Positions 3,198 through 55,400 of a stretch of DNA of 64,000 nt are shown here, one piece after another; position 1 is the first letter of the stretch, and each line of letters opens with the position of its first letter. This DNA comes from Mobula birostris. Its lineage: Eukaryota. Under the pieces are notes generated by a model. The model saw only the letters and a list, made by a program, of their open reading frames with translations, did not search any database and had not been told where the DNA came from. Both the position numbers and the translations under genes were made by a program. Where the stretch lies: contig NC_092374.1 in the NCBI RefSeq assembly GCF_030028105.1, positions 163,394,432 through 163,458,431 on the forward strand. Reading direction: 5' to 3'.

Positions 3198-3903
3198 TGT
3201 CACAACTACAGACTCTGCTGCGGGGTTTATGCACCTCCCCAAGCAGCTGTGCTACAGATTCGGCAATTGCGCCCATGAAAGTGCACATTCCAGATGACAC
3301 ACATCAAAGTTGCTGGTGAACGCAGCAGGCCAGGCAGCATCTCTAGGAAGGGGTACAGTCGACGTTTCGGGCTGAGACCCTTATTCCTGACAAAGGGTCT
3401 TGGTCCGAAATGTCGACTGTACCTCTTTCTAGAGATGTTGCCTGGCCTGCTGCGTTCACCAGCAGCTTTGATGTGTGTTGCTTGACTTTCCAGCATCTGC
3501 AGAATTCCTCGTGTTTACATTCCAGATGATGATGGTTTTGTGAAGGCAGTATTTAACTCCCTTCTTTTCATTGTAGTCTTGTTGAGACTTGACCAAAAGC
3601 ACAGCAACCTTACACTTCCTGCTTATCCACATCATTGTCCAGGAAAGAGGGCTACCACTTCAACTGGCACTGGAAAGGAGCGGTAATCATTATGTATTTA
3701 GTCATTGCTTTCAGCTGCGGTGTTGGCATTTCACTTTCTGTTTGAGAGTTTCAGTTAATGGCCCTGTTGGCCTAATGTTTATTGTTTCTCCTTTCCTTTA
3801 AATTCTGCATCAGTTCTCATTAAAGTCAGTGAACTGTTGACCTGTTTCAGTGTCTCTCTCTTTCTCTCTCTCCACTCTTGGGCTATATCCAAAAGTTCTT
3901 ACA
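3198..3903 (+). mobile_element. Gypsy solo LTR related to the LTR at 47530-47980, interrupted by a mini-PLE
   Basis: Starts TGTCACAAC like 47530; shares 'cttgttgag.cttgac', 'gtttgagagttt' and 'cagttct.att' blocks; ends ...TTACA. Confidence 0.7.
3297..3516 (+). mobile_element. Non-coding fold-back mini-Penelope (pLTR only)
   Basis: Arm 3297-3382 is the inverse of 3393-3478; TSD ACATTCCAGATG(A) at 3285-3297 and 3517-3529. Confidence 0.85.
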
Positions 3904-4346
3904 CATACTGTTTATACAGATCAAATAATTATATGGTGCATTGATCTAGCATAAATTAAATAATAATGGTGAATAAAGTGGAAAAACTACCAGAAGAATG
4001 CAGTGCAGATAAAGGATCAATCGTAACAAGATAGATTTTTGAGGCCAAGGGTCCATCTTATATAAGAGGTCCATTCAAGAGTCTGATAATAATGGTTTAG
4101 GAATATCCTTGAGCTTGGTAGCATGTGTTTTCTGGATTTTGTATCTTCTGTCTGATGGGAGAAGAGAGGGGCAAGAATGTGCAAGGTGGTGTGGTATTGG
4201 ATTATTCTGGCTGCTCTACTGATACAGCAAAAAGTATAGACAGTCCATAGAGAGGAGGCTGGTTCCAGTGATGTGTGAGCTGTGTCCACATGCAGCGCAG
4301 TTTCCATACCAAACCATTATTCATCCAGATAGAATGCTTTCTACGA

Positions 4347-4616
4347 CAGTGGTCCTCAACCTCCGGGATGCGGACTGATACATTGCAGCGAAGAATGCAG
4401 CGGTGCAGCGGTGGCCGGAATGCACCCAGCACACCTTTAACAAAAAAGCCGAAATAAACAAGCCAATTAATTAGGTACCGGGCGGCACCTAATTAATTAG
4501 CTTGTTTATTTCGGCTTTTTTCTTAAAGATGTTCTGGGTGCGTTCCGGCCACTGCTGCACCGCTGCATTCTTCGCTGCAATGTATCAGTCCGCATCCCGG
4601 AGGTTGGGGACCACTG
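4347..4616. mobile_element. Near-perfectly palindromic hAT-type MITE (270 bp)
   Basis: Ends CAGTGGTCCTCAACC / GGTTGGGGACCACTG; ~130-bp arms pair almost to the centre; 8-bp flanks TTCTACGA / TTCTATGG. Confidence 0.85.
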
Positions 4617-4959
4617 TTCTATGGTGTAATGATAAACATTGGAAAGAGTCGATGGAGGCATGTCAAATTTATTTAGCCTTCTGAGGAAGTAGAAGTGTTG
4701 GTGAGCATTTTTAGCCGTAATGTCAACATGTTTGTACCAGGACAGGCCATAGAAGATGTTCTCGCCTAGGAACTTGAATCTCTCAAACTTCTCACCAGTT
4801 ATGTAGACAGGAACATGTGCATTGTTCCCCCCCCCACCCCCCCCAACCCTCCTTTGTGAAGTCAGTGACCAGCTGCTTTGTTTTGTTCACATTGAGGGAA
4901 AGATTGTTGTCATTACACCAAGTCAATAAGTTCCCTATCACCTTCCTGCACACTGTCAG

Positions 4960-6669: not shown

Positions 6670-7158
6670 AACGCAAACAAGAGAAAATCTGCAGATGCTG
6701 GGAACCCAAGAAACACACACAAAATGCTGAAGGAACTCGGCAGGCCAGGCAGCATCTATGGAAAAAGAGTACAGTCAATGTTTTGAGCTGAAACCCCTCG
6801 GCAGGACTGGAGAGAAAAAAAAGCTGGAGTAGATTTGAAAGATGGGAGGAGGGGAGAGAGAAACACAAAGTGATAAGAGAAACTTGAAGGAGGAGAGAAG
6901 AAGTAAAGAGCTAGGATGTTGAGTGGTGAAACAGACAGAAGGTCATGGAAGAAAGAAAAGAGAGGAGCACCAGAAGGGGGCAATCAGCAGGCAAGGAGAT
7001 AGGTTGAGAGAGGGAGAAGGGGATGGGAAATGGTGAAGGACTCGGGGTGGGGGCATTACCGGAAGTTTCAGAAATCGAACTTCATGCCTTCAGGTTGGAA
7101 GCCACCCAAATGGAATATAAGGTGTTGTTCCTCCAACCTAAGTGTGGCCTCATCATGA
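6670..7158 (-). mobile_element. 5'-truncated Penelope-like element (pLTR plus GIY-YIG C-terminus)
   Basis: Homologous to 11780-12271; degenerate hammerhead motif at ~6771-6809. Confidence 0.85.
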
Positions 7159-8919: not shown

Positions 8920-9735
8920 CAAAGTAAAAGCCGAAGTCACCAATGAGTTTATCATCATCTGTACAAGTACATGCATGCACAGTTGCAATGAAAATCTTAT
9001 TTGCAGCAGCATCACAGACACATAATATCAGACTTGAAGCATTCACAAAAAGAAAAACACTAATTAAAAATATTACCCACTTTTATTACTAGAAAGAACA
9101 CATTTAGAACAAAAACTACCTTTTAATTTAGTGCAAAATGATCAAAATGTCCATGGTGGTGCTAAACTCAGGGGATTAGGATTGTGCCAATTGGTTTAAG
9201 AACCAAAACGGTTGAAGGGAGGTAGCCGATTTTGAACCTGGTGGTGTGGCACCTCAGGCTTCTGTCCCTCATGCTTAATGGTAGTTTGAGAATACGGCAT
9301 GGCCCAGGTGGTGGGGATCTTTCATGTTGGATGCTGCCTTCTTGAGGCAGTAGATCCAGCAGGTACGACTGATAAGGGGAGGAATGTGTTATTGTTGAAC
9401 TGGGCTGATTCCACTCCTCTTTTAAAACCCAAACAACAGGAAATCTGCAGATGCTGGAAATTCAAGCAACACACAGCAAAGTTGCTGGTGAACGCAGCAG
9501 GCCAGGCAGCATCTCTAGGAAGAGGTACAGTCGACGTTTCAGGCCGAGACCCTTCAAGCAACACACATCAAAGTTGCTGGTGAACGCAGCAGGCCAGGCA
9601 GCATCTCTAGGAAGAGGTACAGTCGACGTTTCAAGCCGAGACCCTGCTGCGTTCACCAGCAACTTTGATGTGTGTTGCTCCACTCCTCTTTGCAGCTTCT
9701 TATATTCCAGTGCATTTAAATTGCTGTACCAGACC
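8920..9735 (-). mobile_element. Rex1/Babar LINE 3' portion interrupted by a mini-PLE
   Basis: 'ttgaacctggtggtgtggcacctcaggcttctgt' and 'ccactcctctttgcagcttctt..ctgtaccagaccatgatgca'. Confidence 0.65.
9423..9678 (-). mobile_element. Non-coding mini-Penelope: pLTR tip, tandem partial copy and inverted stub
   Basis: Direct repeat ~9462-9553 / 9555-9644; inverted stub ~9644-9678; TSD TCCACTCCTCTTT at 9410-9422 and 9679-9691. Confidence 0.85.
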
Positions 9736-10473
9736 ATGATGCAATCTCAACAATCAATTTTTATATCTATCCATTACAGAAAGGATAAATGTTACTACCA
9801 CTCAACCTATGAGGAAAATTCTGCATTCACACTGAAATACCCTCCATCATGTTAAATAGGACGAACTCTGAGAATATCTGTCAGCTCAGACAGGCACAAT
9901 GTGCGGTTGACCATCAGCAACATCAGAAACATACACCATAAAACCATAACACCATCAGACAGAGGAGCAGCAGTAGGCCATTCAGCCCATCAAGTCTGCT
10001 CCGCCATTCCATCATGGCTAACCCTGGATCCCACTCAATCCCATACACCTACATTCGCACCATATCCTTTGATGCCCTGACCAATCAGGAAATGGTTAAC
10101 TTCCACCTTAAATATACCCACAGACTCGGCCTCACTGCAATCTGTGGCAGAGCATTCCAAAGAGTTATGACTCTCTGGCTAAAGAAAATTCCTCCTTACC
10201 TCTGTTCTAAAGGGTTGCCCCTCAATTTTGAGGTTGTCCCCTCTATTTCTGGTTACCACCACCACAGGAAACATCCTCTCCACATCCACCCTAACTAGTC
10301 CTTTCAACATTCAGTAAGTTTCAATGAAATCCCCCTACATTCTTCTAAATTCCAGTGAGTACAGGCCTAATGCTCCTCACATGTTAACCCCTTCATTCCC
10401 AGAATCATCCTTGTGAATACTCACAACACACTGGAGGAACTCAGCAGGTCAGGCAGCAACCGTGGAAACGATG

Positions 10474-10508
10474 AGTCGACGTTTCAGGCCAGAACCCTCG
10501 TCAGGACT
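10474..10508 (-). ncRNA. Minimal type-I hammerhead ribozyme, core intact
   Basis: Minus strand AGTC-CTGACGA-GGGT(TCTG)GCCT-GAAA-CGTC^GACT: stem I 4 bp, CUGANGA, stem II, GAAA, palindromic ACGU helix III, GUC cleavage triplet. Confidence 0.8.
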
Positions 10509-10771
10509 GAAGAGGGAAGGGGCAGAGGCCCTATAAAGAAGGTGGAGCAGGGTGGGAAGAAGAAGGCTGGTAGGTCCAGTTGAAAAACCAGTAATTTGAA
10601 AGAAAAAGGGGTGGGGGAGGGGAAGCAGGGAGGTGATAGGCAGGAAAGGTGAAGAAGGAATAGCGGAAAACACAATGGGTAGTAGAAGGAGGTGGAACCA
10701 TGAGGGAGGTGATAGGTAGCTGGGGGAGGGGGTAGAGTGAAATAGGGATAGAGGAAGGGAGGGGGAGGGAA

Positions 10772-11374
10772 TTACCAGAAGTTGGAGAATTCTATGTTCA
10801 TACCAAGGGGCTGGAGACTACCTAGACGGTATATGAGGTGTTGCTCCTCCAACCTGAGTTTAGCCTCATCATGGCAGTAGAGGAGGCCATGTATGGACAT
10901 ATCTGAATGGGAATGGGAAGCAGAGTTGAAGTGGGTGGCTACCGGGAGATCCTGCCTGTTGTGGCGAATGCAGTGGAGCTCGACGAAGCGGTCCCCTAAT
11001 CTGTGTTGTGCTTTACCGATGTAGAGGAGGCCACACCGGGAGCACCGGATGCAATAGATGACCCCAACAGACTCACAAGTGAAGTGTTGCCTCACCTGGA
11101 AGGACTGTTTGGGACCCTGAATGGTAGAAAGAGAGGAGGTGTAGGGACAGGTGTAGCACTTACGCTTACAGGGATAAGTGTCGGGTAGGAGATCCGTGGG
11201 GCTGGATGTGTGGATCAGGGAGTCACGGAGGGACCGATCCCTGCGGAAAGTGGAGAGGGGTGGAGAAGGAAATATGTGCTTAGTGGTGGGGCCCTGTTGA
11301 AGGTGGTGGAAGTTGCGGAGGATAATGTGCTGGATCCGGAGGTTGGTGGGGTGGTAGGTGAGGACAAGGGGAAC
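10772..11374 (-). pseudogene. Penelope ORF C-terminus: Cys-rich linker plus GIY-YIG endonuclease (open frame, RT absent)
   Basis: VPLVLTYHP...CYTC...FTCESVGVIYCIRCSRCGLLYIG...RF.E...HFN...EQHLI..LGSLQP.GMN. Confidence 0.85.
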
Positions 11375-12141
11375 TACAAGGGGTACCCCTCTCGTTTTCC
11401 GCAGGGATCGGTCCCTCCACGACTCCGTTATCCACACATCCCTCCCCACGGATCTCCCACCCGGCACTTATCCCTGTAAGCATAAGTGCTACACCTGTCC
11501 CTACACCTCCTCTCTTGCCACTATTCAGGGCCCCAAACAGTCCTTCCAGGTGAGGTAACACTTCACTTGTGAGTCTGTTGGGGTCATCTATTGCATCAGG
11601 TGCTCCTGGTGCGGCCTCCTCTACATCGGTGAAACCCGACGCATATTGGGGGACCGCTTCGTCAAGCACCCCCGCTCTGTCCACCACAACAGACAGGATC
11701 TCCCGGTACCCACCCACGTCAACTCTGCTTCCCATTCCCATTCAGATATGTCCATACATGGCCTCCTCTACTGCTATGATGAGGCTAAACTCAGGTTGGA
11801 GGAGCAACACCTCATATACCGTCTAGGTAGTCTCCAGCTCCTTGGTATGAACATAGAATTCTCCAACTTCTGGTAATTCCCTCCCCCTCCCTTCCCCTAT
11901 CTCTATGCCACTTTGCCCCCTCCCCCAGCTACCTACCACCTCCCTCATGGTTCCACCTCCTTCTACTACCCATTGTGTTTTCCCCTATTCCTTCTTCACC
12001 TTTCCTGCCTATCACCTCCCTGCTTCCCCTCCCCCACCCCTTTGTCTTTCAAAGTGCTGGTTTTTTTCAACTGGACCTACCAGCCTTCTTCTTCCCACCC
12101 TCCCCCACCTTCTTTATAGGGCCTCTGCCCCTTCCCTCTTC

Positions 12142-12177
12142 AGTCCTGATGAAGGGTTCCGGCCCAAAACGTCGACT
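12142..12177 (+). ncRNA. Hammerhead ribozyme motif with G12->A, likely inactive
   Basis: AGTC-CTGATGA-A-GGGT(TCCG)GCCC-AAAA-CGTC-GACT. Confidence 0.7.
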
Positions 12178-12399
12178 CATCGTTTCCACGGATGCTGCCC
12201 GACCTGCTGAGTTCCTCCAGCATGTTGTGAGTGTTGCTTTGATCCCAGCATCTGCAGATTATTTTGTGTTTATCATCCTTGTGAATCTCCTCTGGTCCCT
12301 CTCCAACAACAAAATCTCCTTTCTGAGATATGGGGCCCATAACTGTTGACAGTACTTCAGATGCAGCCTGACTAGTGTCTATAAAGGCGCAGCATTATC

Positions 12400-31300: not shown

Positions 31301-31570
31301 ACATACGCATAGAACGCCTTGGGGTTCTCCTTAATCCTACATGCCAAGACCTTCTCATGCCCCCTTCGAGCTCTCCTAAGTTCTTTCTTAAGCTCCTTCC
31401 TGGCTACCCTATATTTCTCATGAGCCTCTCCTGCTTCCTGCTTCTTATATCTAACATATGCTTCCTTCTTCCTCTTGACGAGTTGCCTCATGTGTTTTGT
31501 CAGCCACGGTTCCCTTTTCCTACCATTTTTTCTTGTCTCAGTGGGACAAACCTAACCTGACCCAGCACAA

Positions 31571-31729
31571 CAACAGGAATTCTGCAGATGCTGGAAATTC
31601 AAGCAACACACATCAAAGTTGCTGGTAAACGCAGCAGGCCAGGCAGCATCTGTAGGAAGAGGTGCAGTCGACGTTTCAGGCTGAGACCCTTCATCAGGAC
31701 ACGTTTACCAGCAACTTTGATGTGTGTTG
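31571..31729 (-). mobile_element. 159-bp non-coding mini-Penelope with inverted stub
   Basis: TSD CCTGACCCAGCACAA at 31556-31570 and 31730-31744; stub at 31702-31729. Confidence 0.9.
31667..31700 (-). ncRNA. Minimal type-I hammerhead ribozyme, core intact (stem I 3 bp)
   Basis: GTC-CTGATGA-A-GGGT(CTCA)GCCT-GAAA-CGTC^GAC. Confidence 0.75.
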
Positions 31730-32184
31730 CCTGACCCAGCACAAGTGGTCTCTAAACTTCCTCCACATTACTTCTGTGCTTTCACCCTTGAACATCTGTT
31801 TCCAATTTACTCTCGCTAGTTCCTGCCTCATCTCTTCATAGTTAGCCTTTCCCCAGTTAAGCACTTTCCAATTTTGTCTGTTTTTATCCTTTTTCATAGC
31901 TATGCTGAAGCTAAGGGAGTTGTGGTCACTCTCACCAAAATGCTCCCCCACCAAGAGGTCTGCCACCTGATCAGGTTCATTACCCAGAACTAGATCCAGT
32001 ATGGCCCCTTCTCTCGTCGGCCAGTCCATATACTGTATCAGAAATCCTTCTTGACCACACCTGACAAATTCAGCCCCATCTATCCCCCTTGCAGTCAGGA
32101 GGTGCCAGTCAATATGAGAGAAGTAGAAATCACCCATAACTACAACACTGTGTTTCCAGCACCATTCTAAAATCTGCTTATCAG

Positions 32185-33082: not shown

Positions 33083-34065
33083 TGCAACACACACAAACTG
33101 CTGGAGGAACTCAGCAGGCCAAACAGCATTTATGGAAAAGAGACGGTCAACATTTCAGGCCAAGATACTTCAGCAGGACTGGAGGAAAAAAAAAAGATGA
33201 GGACTAGAGTTAAAAGGTGGGAGGAGAGGAAGGAGAGCACCAAGGTGATAGGTAAAACCAGGTGGGGGGAGGGCAAAGTAAAGAGCTGGGAAGTTGATTT
33301 GTGAAAGGAATACAGGGCTGGAGAAGCGGGAGTTTGATAGGAGAGAACAGAAGGGTATGGAAGAAAGAAAAGGTGAGAGGAGCACCAGAGGGAGGCCATG
33401 GCCGACCAGGAGATAAGATAACAGAAGGAAAAAGGGATTGGGAATTGTGAAGGTGGGTGGGTGGGGGTGGGGGTGGAGGCATTACCGGAAGTTCGAGAAA
33501 ATGATGTTTATATCAACAGGTTGGAAGCTACCCAGACAGAATATAAGGTGTTGTTCCTCCAACCCGAGTGTGGCCTCATCGCAACAGTACAGGAGGCCAT
33601 GGATTGACATATCGGAATGGGAGTGGGAAGTGGAAATAAAATGGGTGACCACCGGGAGATCCCATTTCTTCTGGCGAACATAATATAGATATTCCGCTAA
33701 GCTGTCTCCCAATCTACGTCAGGTCACACTGATATACAGGAGACCACACCGGGAGCACTGAACACAGTCTATAACCCCAACAGACTCACAGGTGAAGTGT
33801 TACCTGACCTGGAAGGACAATTTGGGGTCCTGAATAGTAGTGAGGGAGAAGGTGTAGAGGCAGTTGTAGCACTTGTTCCGCCTGCAAGGATAAGTGCCAG
33901 GAAGGAGATCAGTGGGGAGGGATGAATCGACAAGGGAGTCGCATAGGCAGTGATCCCTGTGGAAAGCAGAGAGTTGGGGGGGGGGGGAAGGAAAAATGTG
34001 CTTGGTGTTGGTTGGGATACCATTGGAGATGGTGGAAGTTCCACAGAATTATGTACTGGACAGGA
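33083..34065 (-). mobile_element. Penelope-like element fragment (GIY-YIG plus pLTR lacking the terminal tail)
   Basis: 'DLPVVTHF..SDMSIHGLLYC..EEQHLIFCLGSFQP'; degenerate hammerhead motif at ~33143-33181. Confidence 0.88.
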
Positions 34066-39914: not shown

Positions 39915-40980
39915 AACCACCGCTGCTGCCTTCAACCATATATCCTCAAACTTGGACATCTACACTCATCCCACCTTACCACTGCCTTAACAGGAATAGA
40001 GTTCCTCTTGTCTTCACCTACCACCCCATGAGGCTTTGCATCCAACAAATCCTTCTCTACAATTTTTGCTATCTTCAATGGGACCCTAGAAGCAAACACA
40101 TATTTACTTCACTCCTCTCTGCTTTCCACTGGGATCGTTCACTCCATGATTCCCTTGTCCATTTATCCAGCTGCACTAATCTCTCTCCTGGCACATATCA
40201 CTGCAAGCAACAGATATGCTATACTTGCCCATTTATCTCCTCCATTAATTCCATTCAGGGCCCCAATTCAGTCCTTCCAGATGATGCAGTACTTCACCTG
40301 TGAATCTGTTGGGGCTGTCTATTGTGTTCAGTACACCAGATGTGACCTCCTCTACTGGGATGAGACCTGACATAAATTGGAGACCGCTTTGTTGAGCACC
40401 TCTGCTCCATCCGCCAAAATGGAAATTCCCAGGGGCCAAAGATTTAGATTCCTATCCTCAATCCTATTTTGAAATGTTGGTCCATGACCACCTCTATTGC
40501 CAGAATGAGGCCACTGTCAGGTTGGATAAGCAACACCTAATACTATGTCTGGATAGCCTCCAACCTGATTGCGTGAACGTCGATTTCTCCTTACGGTAAA
40601 AAAAAATTACACCCCCTTCACTCATCCTCTATTCCCCACTCCAGCCTCTTACCTCTTCTCCTTATTTGCATATTACCTTCCCCTAGTGCTCCTCATTCTT
40701 CCCTTTCTCCCATGGTCCATTCTCCTTTCCTATCATATTCTTTCTCCTCCAGCCCTTTACCTTTCACCTGGCTTCATCTATCACCTTCTAACTATCTTCC
40801 TTACCCTCTTCACACCTTTTTATTCTGGCGTCTTATCACTTCCTTTCCAGTCCTGAAGGGTCTCAACACAAGATGTCAATTGCTTGTTAATTTCCGTGGA
40901 TGCTGCCTGACCTGCTAAGTTCCTATAGCATTTTGTGTCTGTTGTTTTAGATTCCCAACAACTACAGAATCTCCTGTGTT
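39915..40980 (+). mobile_element. 5'-truncated Penelope-like element
   Basis: 'RVPLVFTYHP', 'FTCESVGAVYC'; pLTR with degenerate hammerhead motif at ~40848-40880. Confidence 0.88.
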
Positions 40981-44850: not shown

Positions 44851-45157
44851 AATCCACCCAGTACACAGTCTGCAGAGGAGCAGAGGCAGGTGGGACACAT
44901 GCACCTATCTCAGGAGGAATGCAGTTTCCTGCCTCTACTGTCACTACCCAGGACACTTCCAGGCATCGTGTCCCAAGTGTCCAGTGAAAAAGGATACCAA
45001 CCAGCAGGAAGGTGAATTCTGAAGGGTGGATTCTCCCGGCAACCATCTTCCCCTAATCGGGCAAAGCTCCCAGCTTCCTTGTTGTGGGGATCTCAGACCC
45101 ATGAGTTTCAGGCATTTACTGACTCTGGGGCAACTCGGAATCTCACGGATATCTGAC

Positions 45158-46116
45158 TCAGCAGGTCAGGCAGCATCAGTGGAAAAGATCAGTCGACATT
45201 TTGGTCCGGAACCCTTCGTCAGGACTGTAGAGGGAAAGGGGCAAAGGCCCTATAAAGAAGGTGGGGGGGAGGGTGGGAAGGAGAAGGCTGGTAGGTACCA
45301 GGTGAAAAACCAGTAAGGGGAAAGATAAAGGGGTAGGGGAGGGGAGGCAGGGAAGTGATAGGCAGGAAAGGAGAAGAAGGAATAGGGGAAAGCACAATGG
45401 GTAGAAGAAGGAAGCGGAACCATAGGGAGGTGATAGGCAGCTGGGGGAGGGGGCAGAGTGACATAGGGATACAGGAAGGGAGGGGGAGGGAATTACCGGA
45501 AGTTGGAGAATTCTATGTTCATACCAACGGGCTGGAGACTACCTAGACAATATATGAGGTGTTGCAGACAGACAGGATCTCCCAGTAGCCACCCACTTCA
45601 GCTCTGCTTCCCACTCCCATTCAGATATGTCCATACATGACCTCCTTTACTGCCATGATGAGGCTAAACTCAGGATGGAGGAGCAACACCTCATATACTG
45701 TCTAGGTAGTCTCCAGCCCCTTGGTATGAACATAGAATTCTCCAACTTCCAGTAATTCTCTCCCCCTCCCTTCCTCTATCCCTATGTCAGTCTGCCCCCT
45801 CCCCCAGCTGCCTATCACCTCCCTCATGGTTCCGCCTCCTTCTACTACCCATTGTGTTTTCCCCTATTCCTTCTTCACCTTTCCTGCCTATTACCTCCCA
45901 GCTTCCCCTCCCCCACCCCTTTATCTTTCCCCTTACTGGTTTTTCACCTGGAACTGACCAGCCTTCTCCTTCCCACCCTCCCCCCACCTTCTTTATAGGG
46001 CCTCTGCCCCTCCCCCCTACAGTCCTGACGAAGGGTTCCGGCCCAAAACGTCGACTGATCTTTTCCACGGATGCTGCCCAACCTGCTGAGTTCCTCCAGC
46101 GTGTTGTGAGTGTTGC
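45158..46116. mobile_element. Fold-back Penelope (minus arm 45158-~45565, plus arm ~45569-46116)
   Basis: Arms are mutual reverse complements; hammerhead motifs at 45190-45227 (-) and 46020-46057 (+), both with G12->A; no TSD. Confidence 0.88.
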
Positions 46117-54654: not shown

Positions 54655-55400
54655 TACCTGGTTGCTCCAGGTGCTCCTGATGCAGCCTCCTCTGCATTGA
54701 CAAGGCCCCAAACAATCCTTCCAGTTGAGGCAGCACTTCACCTGCAAATCTGCTGGAGTCATCTATTGTGTCTGGAGCTCACAATGCAGCCTCCTCTACG
54801 CTGGTGAGACCCGTTGTAAATTGGGAGACCACTTTGTCACACAGCTCTGCTCCATCTGCCAAAAGCAGAACTTCCCAGTGATCAAGCATTTTAATTCCAA
54901 TTCCCATTCCTGCTCTGACATGTTGGTCCATGGCCACCTCTTTTGCCAAGATTGGGCCACCCTCATATTTATATATTCCATCTGGATAGCCTCCAACCTG
55001 ATGGCATGAATATTGATTTCTGTTTCCAATAAAAAGAATGTCCTTCCCCCTTCCCTCTTCTATTCCCCACTCTGTCCTTTTGCATCTTCTGACCTGCCTG
55101 TCATTTCCCCCTGGGCTCCCCCCTCCTTCCTTTTCTCTTTTGGTCCACTCTCTTCTCCTATCAAATTCCTTCTTCTCTAGCTGTTTACCTTTCCCACCCA
55201 TCTGGCTTTACCTATCACCTTCTTGCTTGCCTCCTTCCCCTACCCCCATTTCTTTTATTCTGGTGTCTTCCCCCTTCCTTTTCAGTCCTGATGAGGGCCC
55301 TTGACTTGAAACGTCGACTGTTTGTTAATTTCCATGAATGCTGCCTGACCTGTTAAGTTCTTGCAGCATTTTGTGTGAGTTGCTTTGGATTTTTAGCATC
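54655..55400 (+). mobile_element. 5'-truncated Penelope-like element
   Basis: 'RQHFTCKSAGVIYC..LLYAGETR'; pLTR present. Confidence 0.88.
55283..55320 (+). ncRNA. Hammerhead ribozyme motif, core intact, stem II weakened
   Basis: CAGTC-CTGATGA-GGGCCCTTGACTT-GAAA-CGTC^GACTG. Confidence 0.65.

Follow-up and report, generated by a model that had tools for sequence, protein, structure and literature searches.

We examined a fold-back insertion at positions 3285–3528 of a 64,000-nt stretch of Mobula birostris DNA, hereafter the window. Two arms of 86 nt each (3297–3382 and 3393–3478), 91% complementary and separated by a gap of 10 nt, are followed by a 38-nt tail, and the whole is enclosed by a direct repeat (3285–3297 and 3517–3529) made up of 12 bp plus one A common to the arm. 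This bears out the anatomy given in an earlier sequence-only reading of the locus, which described 86-bp arms, a 10-nt spacer, a 38-nt tail and a target-site duplication (TSD) of 12–13 bp. The fold-back folds far better than shuffled sequences (z-score -22.5; 0 of 200 shuffles as good), and the spacer between the arms, ATTCCTGACA, carries the CUGA half of a hammerhead core. Taking the cleavage-site C of that hammerhead (window position 3414) as element coordinate 0, the left arm corresponds to positions -21 to +64 of a Penelope-like element (PLE) on the minus strand and the right arm to positions -31 to +102:

3285–3296, plus strand: left TSD, 12 bp, a direct repeat (TSDs of 11–18 bp are usual in the family)
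3297–3382, minus strand: inverted, untailed pLTR arm, element -21 to +64, without the CUGANG half of the core
3381–3384, no strand assigned: head-to-head junction, TT microhomology, then A(-31), with a likely G>T change
3383–3516, plus strand: tailed sense pLTR arm, element -31 to +102
3479–3516, plus strand: 38-nt PLE tail, on one arm only
3517–3528, plus strand: right TSD

The two arms differ at 8 positions, all of them transitions, and the right arm is 93–95% identical to other copies in the source genome. Judging from the letters at the junction, the arms probably met at a TT microhomology of 2 nt, next to which come A(-31) and a G>T substitution at 3384; the native-G form of this junction has 65 exact matches in the genome, and the form with the focal G>T has one. 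The tail matches the description of PLE tails in the sections of PMC11167929 consulted, as the stretch between two reverse transcriptase (RT) start sites. Most of the 55 inverted arms in the first of the two samples described below end at +57 to +76, and 5 end at +101/102.

Using the description of minimal hammerheads in the relevant part of PMC4209133, the following ribozyme features were read from the sequence:

3383–3418, plus strand: decayed minimal type I hammerhead
3383–3386 with 3415–3418, plus strand: helix I
3387–3393, plus strand: hammerhead core, with G8>A at 3392
3395–3406, plus strand: helix II, followed by GAAA at 3407–3410; helix III is palindromic, with a zero loop
after 3414, plus strand: cleavage site

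The conserved core CUGANGA...GAAA...UH with helices I and II is present in the family, and the minimum free energy structure of an intact copy started at -31 contains both helices. In the focal insertion, the right arm carries G8>A (3392) and C15.2>T (3411), both CpG-type decay, and the left arm lacks most of CUGANGA. Thus, as far as can be read from the letters of the fold-back, neither arm holds an intact ribozyme, which corrects the sequence-only reading. An Rfam scan of the 64-kb window gave no hammerhead match at E<=1; the mir-2 matches that it returned at the sister fold-backs are weak, lie under the gathering score and reflect the hairpin, and were set aside.

Two sister insertions lie in the same window:

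9431–9679, minus strand: tandem short units (-22 to +102 and -20 to +72) and an inverted piece (+32 to +68)
31569–31734, minus strand: element -30 to +101 and an inverted piece (+39 to +71)

With sister starts at -22/-20 and -30, and focal arms starting at -21 and -31, all three main copies begin in or at the hammerhead, in agreement with the sequence-only reading. Its assignment of all three to one subfamily stands at the level of the family only: the focal and 9423 copies have the sub-lineage alleles GTACC/TAGAG, whereas the 31571 copy has GCACC/TACAG. The window contains several other repeats. An unrelated second palindrome at 4346–4617 (272 bp, 93% self-complementary), with no PLE match, looks like a MITE-type DNA element. 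An inverted pair at 10416–12272, with arms of about 850 bp at 92% identity, comes from another PLE family, related fragments of which lie at 45156–46116, and older PLE fragments are found at 6675–7157, 33084–34061, 39953–40980 and 54701–55400.

A search of the source genome (4.0 Gb) showed that many copies run upstream, via a pyrimidine-rich UTR, into coding sequence, and that the focal sequence is collinear with this coding PLE, without a break, at 90–96% identity. The sequence-only reading had suggested looking for an autonomous parent. The parent family is a coding PLE with RT and GIY-YIG domains, and it is very abundant: the 53-base stretch adjoining the tail has 19,286 exact matches in the genome and a one-letter variant of it 743, so that tailed copies number at least 19,286, and in truth more, since exact matching already misses the 743 variants. 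Long copies have more than 2.1 kb in common. At locus L104, a 563-aa open frame matches RT (RVT_1, E 6e-6) and GIY-YIG (E 0.003), both below the Pfam cut-offs, and relatives carry both domains; no fully intact full-length PLE ORF was located among the copies examined. The nearest named relatives of the PLE ORF are ray proteins, at up to 94% identity. Two ray gene models that carry host-gene names (P0002 and P0004; divergent kinase, chitinase domain) show a 77–86% match to the PLE ORF, and this similarity suggests that they could be exonised or mis-annotated PLE sequence. Past the tail, the sequence reads on into the N-terminal part of the ORF and connects with the RT region, for a unit of about 3.5 kb with a likely start codon some 40 nt after the tail; in L130, L139 and L154 the pLTR is seen as a partial tandem overlapping the ORF start region. 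A short ATG-started frame at pLTR +21 to +71 (window 3435–3485) is in frame with the main ORF and stops at a TGA just within the tail, upstream of the likely main start codon.

Three features that characterize EN+ PLEs were found here: the partial-tandem pLTR just described, an inverted 5'-truncated copy with a 30–40 bp tail on one end, and, in the parent, a single ORF with RT followed by a C-terminal GIY-YIG (the domain hits being below curated cut-offs). The translations also contain the linker motif CxxxxCxxC (CKRNKCYTC) expected of Neptune, which, according to the passages seen of PMC8557442, is common to Neptune and Nematis; the motif points to a placement of the parent in one or the other. 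It is almost certain that the focal insertion consists of two truncated pLTR copies of this coding PLE, set head to head. The focal copy is an ordinary, dead by-product and not a mobile unit.

We mapped 5' breakpoints in two samples, namely, the first 100 listed of the 19,286 exact matches, all on contig C1 (6 with only about 500 nt of upstream sequence, which censored one of them), and 90 of the first 100 listed of the 743 variant matches, leaving out one already sampled and the last 9. The anchors lie at +43 to +95, such that only tailed arms and breaks 5' of +43 are visible, and the breakpoints were taken from the ends of BLAST alignments to two real copies and are accurate to a few nt. Comparison of breakpoints with the hammerhead, as the sequence-only reading had proposed, yielded a replicated, non-random peak: 33 of 100 breakpoints in the first sample and 31 of 90 in the second fall within -41 to -17. 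The smooth truncation named there as the contrary outcome did not occur, since the pooled 64 of 190 correspond to a hazard of 1.9% per base in this zone compared to 0.25% on the flanks (7.7-fold, p 2e-34), with a maximum of 1.1% per base in 300 constant-hazard simulations. The mode, at -31 (10 of 190), falls on the first base of helix I rather than on the cleavage site, and it stays at -31 when the 67 short inverted pairs are remapped exactly. The breakpoints of inverted arms also cluster in this zone, and because those of non-inverted copies do so too (25 of 67), annealing between arms is not the cause of the peak. Among bystander PLE families (858 kb), 18 of 54 breaks fall in this zone, a count to be read with the caveat that alignment ends of diverged families can be biased to this edge.

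The peak is broad, spanning -17 to -41 with stragglers to -69, and it is accompanied by minor features, including about 8 breakpoints at -46 to -60, near a branch-like motif, and a second cluster near -157 (9 compared to 3.8 expected, p 0.015). Breakpoints at -142 to -165 (L049, L094, L131, L142, L146, L148, L266 and others) sit at an initiator-like TCATATC, and this cluster is possibly a second start site. There is also a small excess around the cleavage site, at -4 to +9 (13 compared to 5.1 expected, p 0.002), as might be anticipated if hammerhead self-cleavage gave the template its 5' end. As the source of the main peak, self-cleavage is extremely improbable: it would place the end at +1, and the peak is some 31 nt upstream of that site, with the whole core kept; several of the breaks at -2 reflect microhomology within the palindrome, and insertion by PAc (Anolis Poseidon) needs no cleavage, as reported in the consulted parts of PMC11167929. 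Self-cleavage may account for a minor breakpoint class.

Short fold-backs with a median length of 213 bp make up 67 of the 190 anchors, and two junction types recur in the genome, with 425 and 65 exact matches. Together with the existence of non-autonomous PLE derivatives, known from passages of PMC8557442 and bioRxiv 10.64898/2026.07.22.740005, these recurrences could point to a non-autonomous, retrozyme- or SINE-like mini-family of about 130–220 bp, copied as a unit by PLE proteins, as the sequence-only reading had envisaged. However, of 30 loci drawn from the 65 of the focal junction type, 12 have a right-arm tail and 17 a left-arm tail (1 unscored); they represent several sub-lineages, and their outer ends vary. 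For the other junction type, 20 of the 425 loci behave alike. Because the tail occurs on either arm, in several sub-lineages and with variable outer ends, the recurrent junctions are independent events, favored by microhomologies of 2–3 nt. Overall, junctions vary widely, there is no tandem array, and the copies run without interruption into the coding parent. A mini-family thus appears very improbable, and the proposal is largely refuted, with no amplification of a unit having a common junction, common ends and private variants. Far from the ribozyme, L087 and L093 have an identical inversion junction (-416/-441) although their TSDs differ, which marks a microhomology hot spot used more than once.

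The lengths of paired arms are strongly concordant, with 67 short/short, 30 long/long and only 5 mixed pairs among 102 (Fisher p 4e-20), although the lengths within long/long pairs are uncorrelated. Short-class arms also have lineage alleles in common, differing at 8 of 101 sites compared to 30% after shuffling; long-class arms are likewise more alike than shuffled ones (12 of 56 sites compared to 36%), and the contrast between the two classes is moderate (p 0.014). The joint occurrence of short with short and long with long arms, along with their common alleles, points either to a class of short templates or to some state of the particle as a whole. Several long inverted pairs of the first sample (L031, L073, L074, L082, L087, L093, L094 and L111) have arms with different bases at lineage-diagnostic sites, a sign that one insertion event may have used two RNAs. 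Consecutive segments with near-equal starts occur at L145 (-133/-133), L146 (-157/-157), L149 (-99/-99), L157 (-33/-31) and L133 (+24/+22), as if RT had run twice to one template end. Fold-back self-priming on one cDNA was rejected as a general route, the tailed arm being shorter in many pairs, and simultaneous, time-limited synthesis was rejected on the lack of correlation between long arms.

The sequence-only reading had offered RT termination at the ribozyme fold as its second inference. The non-random placement of breakpoints is borne out, but as worded, stalling at the fold is doubtful, because RT moves 3' to 5' and meets helix I at +5 to +1, whereas the peak, at -31, is on the RT exit side. 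Independent stalling of the two cDNAs is doubtful as well, because it would be expected to give many mixed short/long pairs.

We consider it probable that RT primes at the tail of an upstream pLTR and runs off the 5' end of a capped mRNA at -31, in a strong-stop-like manner. Under this model, PLE RNA would start, with a cap, at the first base of helix I; the element enzyme would nick both target strands, and reverse transcription would be primed at the two tail start sites. Priming in the upstream pLTR of the mRNA would then produce a strong-stop-like run-off cDNA of about 100–135 nt, and two such cDNAs, joined head to head by microhomology, would make the focal insertion. Nicking of both strands and internal RT start at the tail have been demonstrated in vitro for other PLEs (PMC11167929).

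Three lines of evidence favor a real RNA end at -31. First, among the first 100 listed of 10,394 matches starting at -31, the preceding base is G in 28 and A in 10, the other 62 having C, which is the native base in other families. The comparable ratio is 29 G to 71 A for starts at -27 (difference p 2.5e-6; against base composition p 2e-4), a control that may be A-biased by recurrent junctions, and the G excess for starts at -32 is not significant (23:19); 2 of 10 inspected G cases before -31 are microhomology. By analogy with L1, where an extra G marks capped full-length insertions (PMC11702581, in the part consulted), the extra G before -31 would argue for an RNA end. Second, templates jump from -31/-32 to ORF positions up to about +1270 in L052, L134, L144, L152 and L157; the jumping templates likely ran from about -31 into the ORF, and such jumps into its 5' part support the same conclusion. 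Third, TTAGTCC in the -31 region fits the initiator consensus YYANWYY, and in combination with this fit, the transcription start site of Penelope inside the pLTR (PMC2377424 and PMC6765202, as far as consulted) also favors a real end. On the more specific proposition that PLE mRNA starts capped at the first base of helix I and that strong-stop cDNAs account for about one-third of the sampled tailed insertions, having been primed in the upstream pLTR and integrated, in many cases with one RNA serving both target strands, our judgment is evenly balanced. Separately, in four putative RNA contig sets, 5 of 15 listed joints have an end at about -30/-31 by coordinate conversion, though these joints may be genomic copies.

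Several observations run counter to run-off at -31. Of 29 upstream pLTRs among the 30 loci whose sequence continues past the tail, only 1 has its start at the peak, and near-full-length copies start further upstream (-277 in L130, -116 in L139 and -127 in L154), so that long copies require either RNA starts further upstream or later formation of the tandem. The breadth of the peak, the -157 cluster, the excess at -4 to +9 and the weak G excess at -32 also weigh against the model. Near-full-length copies that begin upstream of -31 are compatible with another explanation, in which the RNA is longer and a stable state of the particle halts both cDNAs by blocking RT at about -31; the block could be a hammerhead, folded or dimerised, to which protein is bound, or splicing factors sitting on the pyrimidine tract. 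Such a shared state would also explain the concordance of the arms and the template jumps, and the breakpoint mode coincides with the 5' edge of helix I. Nevertheless, we regard this explanation as rather unlikely: a fold stall would be expected on the 3' side, at +5 to +1, where the excess is small (5 compared to 1.8), helix I has a pairing probability of only about 0.35, the region upstream folds no better than shuffles, and the extra G is left unexplained.

The sequence at the break also resembles a splice acceptor, with a branch-like TACT(A/C)AC, a pyrimidine tract and CAG/TTAG, and the breakpoints at -46 to -60 lie by the branch-like motif. The copies might accordingly derive from spliced or lariat RNA with a 3' splice site at the break, by comparison with D. 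virilis Penelope, in which an intron ends at the 5' end of helix I (PMC4209133, in the passage seen). This, however, is improbable given that no shared upstream exon precedes the peak breakpoints at the sampled loci, that TSDs directly adjoin many simple peak copies, and that peak copies without a TSD have no distant one either, except L052, which holds PLE ORF sequence. Furthermore, pairing within helix I likewise demands the AG, and sub-lineages differ in the branch motif. The splice consensus does not lead one to expect a G at exon position -3, which is a further argument against a splice site.

The inverted-pLTR form of insertion and paired opposite-strand minimal hammerheads are already known. 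In the openly accessible literature searched, no paper was found to describe breakpoints peaking at helix I, two classes of template or a PLE route resembling strong-stop synthesis. The peak is a real and testable feature of PLE integration, apparently undescribed, and it touches on questions stated to be open in passages of PMC8557442 and PMC11167929, namely, how tandem and inverted PLE structures form and what the hammerhead does. This family makes them accessible to measurement through its two template classes, its cap-like G and a breakpoint class that is sharp and replicated, and the -31 model predicts a specific start site and an in vitro product. Annotators should treat the many hammerhead palindromes of about 210 bp in such genomes as by-products of PLEs rather than as MITEs, miRNA hairpins or retrozymes. 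If the capped start at -31 is real, PLE start sites could be mapped in any genome from genomic 5' breakpoints, the ribozyme would serve as a 5' leader that can remove its own cap, and partial tandems as well as pLTR-only retrozyme seeds would have one source in run-off followed by template jumps.

The proposed route resembles the formation of retroviral minus-strand strong-stop DNA, a run-off product from a terminal repeat near the RNA 5' end. Strong-stop DNA, unlike the proposed PLE product, is tRNA-primed and transferred rather than integrated. Among PLEs, the published inverted-pLTR form of EN+ elements (PMC8557442, Fig. 2 legend; PMC3846280) is, like the focal insertion, truncated 5' and bears an inverted, truncated copy at that end, together with a TSD, a 30–40 bp tail on one end only, a pLTR hammerhead and RT followed by GIY-YIG. 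The focal insertion differs in consisting entirely of two pLTR ends, and the passages on this form in the two papers describe neither a helix I breakpoint peak nor short and long arm classes. Internal RT initiation in PAc, as given in the main text of PMC11167929, is similar in producing two 3' ends about 35 nt apart, here at +66 and +102, and priming on both strands in that system fits the head-to-head focal arms; the PAc ORF starts in stem II, as opposed to some distance after the tail here, and PAc 5' ends are unmapped in that text.

The metazoan minimal type I hammerheads of PLEs described in part of PMC4209133 have the same short helix I, extra base before helix II and palindromic zero-loop helix III, and motifs paired on opposite strands 100–700 bp apart, like the focal pair, were already noted there in 2014; the focal motif differs in its mutated core and in being buried in an 86-bp hairpin. 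Non-LTR retrozymes (bioRxiv 10.64898/2026.07.22.740005, in the sections consulted) are, like the focal insertion, non-coding and pLTR-related with a type I hammerhead, but they form head-to-tail arrays with a complete ribozyme in each unit. The focal insertion is not a retrozyme, because its layout is head to head and neither arm has a complete ribozyme, and it is not amplified as a unit. Finally, twin priming of L1 (PMC11702581) likewise involves two primed cDNAs, joining by microhomology, a retained TSD and an extra G at the complete 5' end; in L1 inversions the two pieces come from different, neighboring stretches of the RNA, while the focal arms represent one stretch twice.
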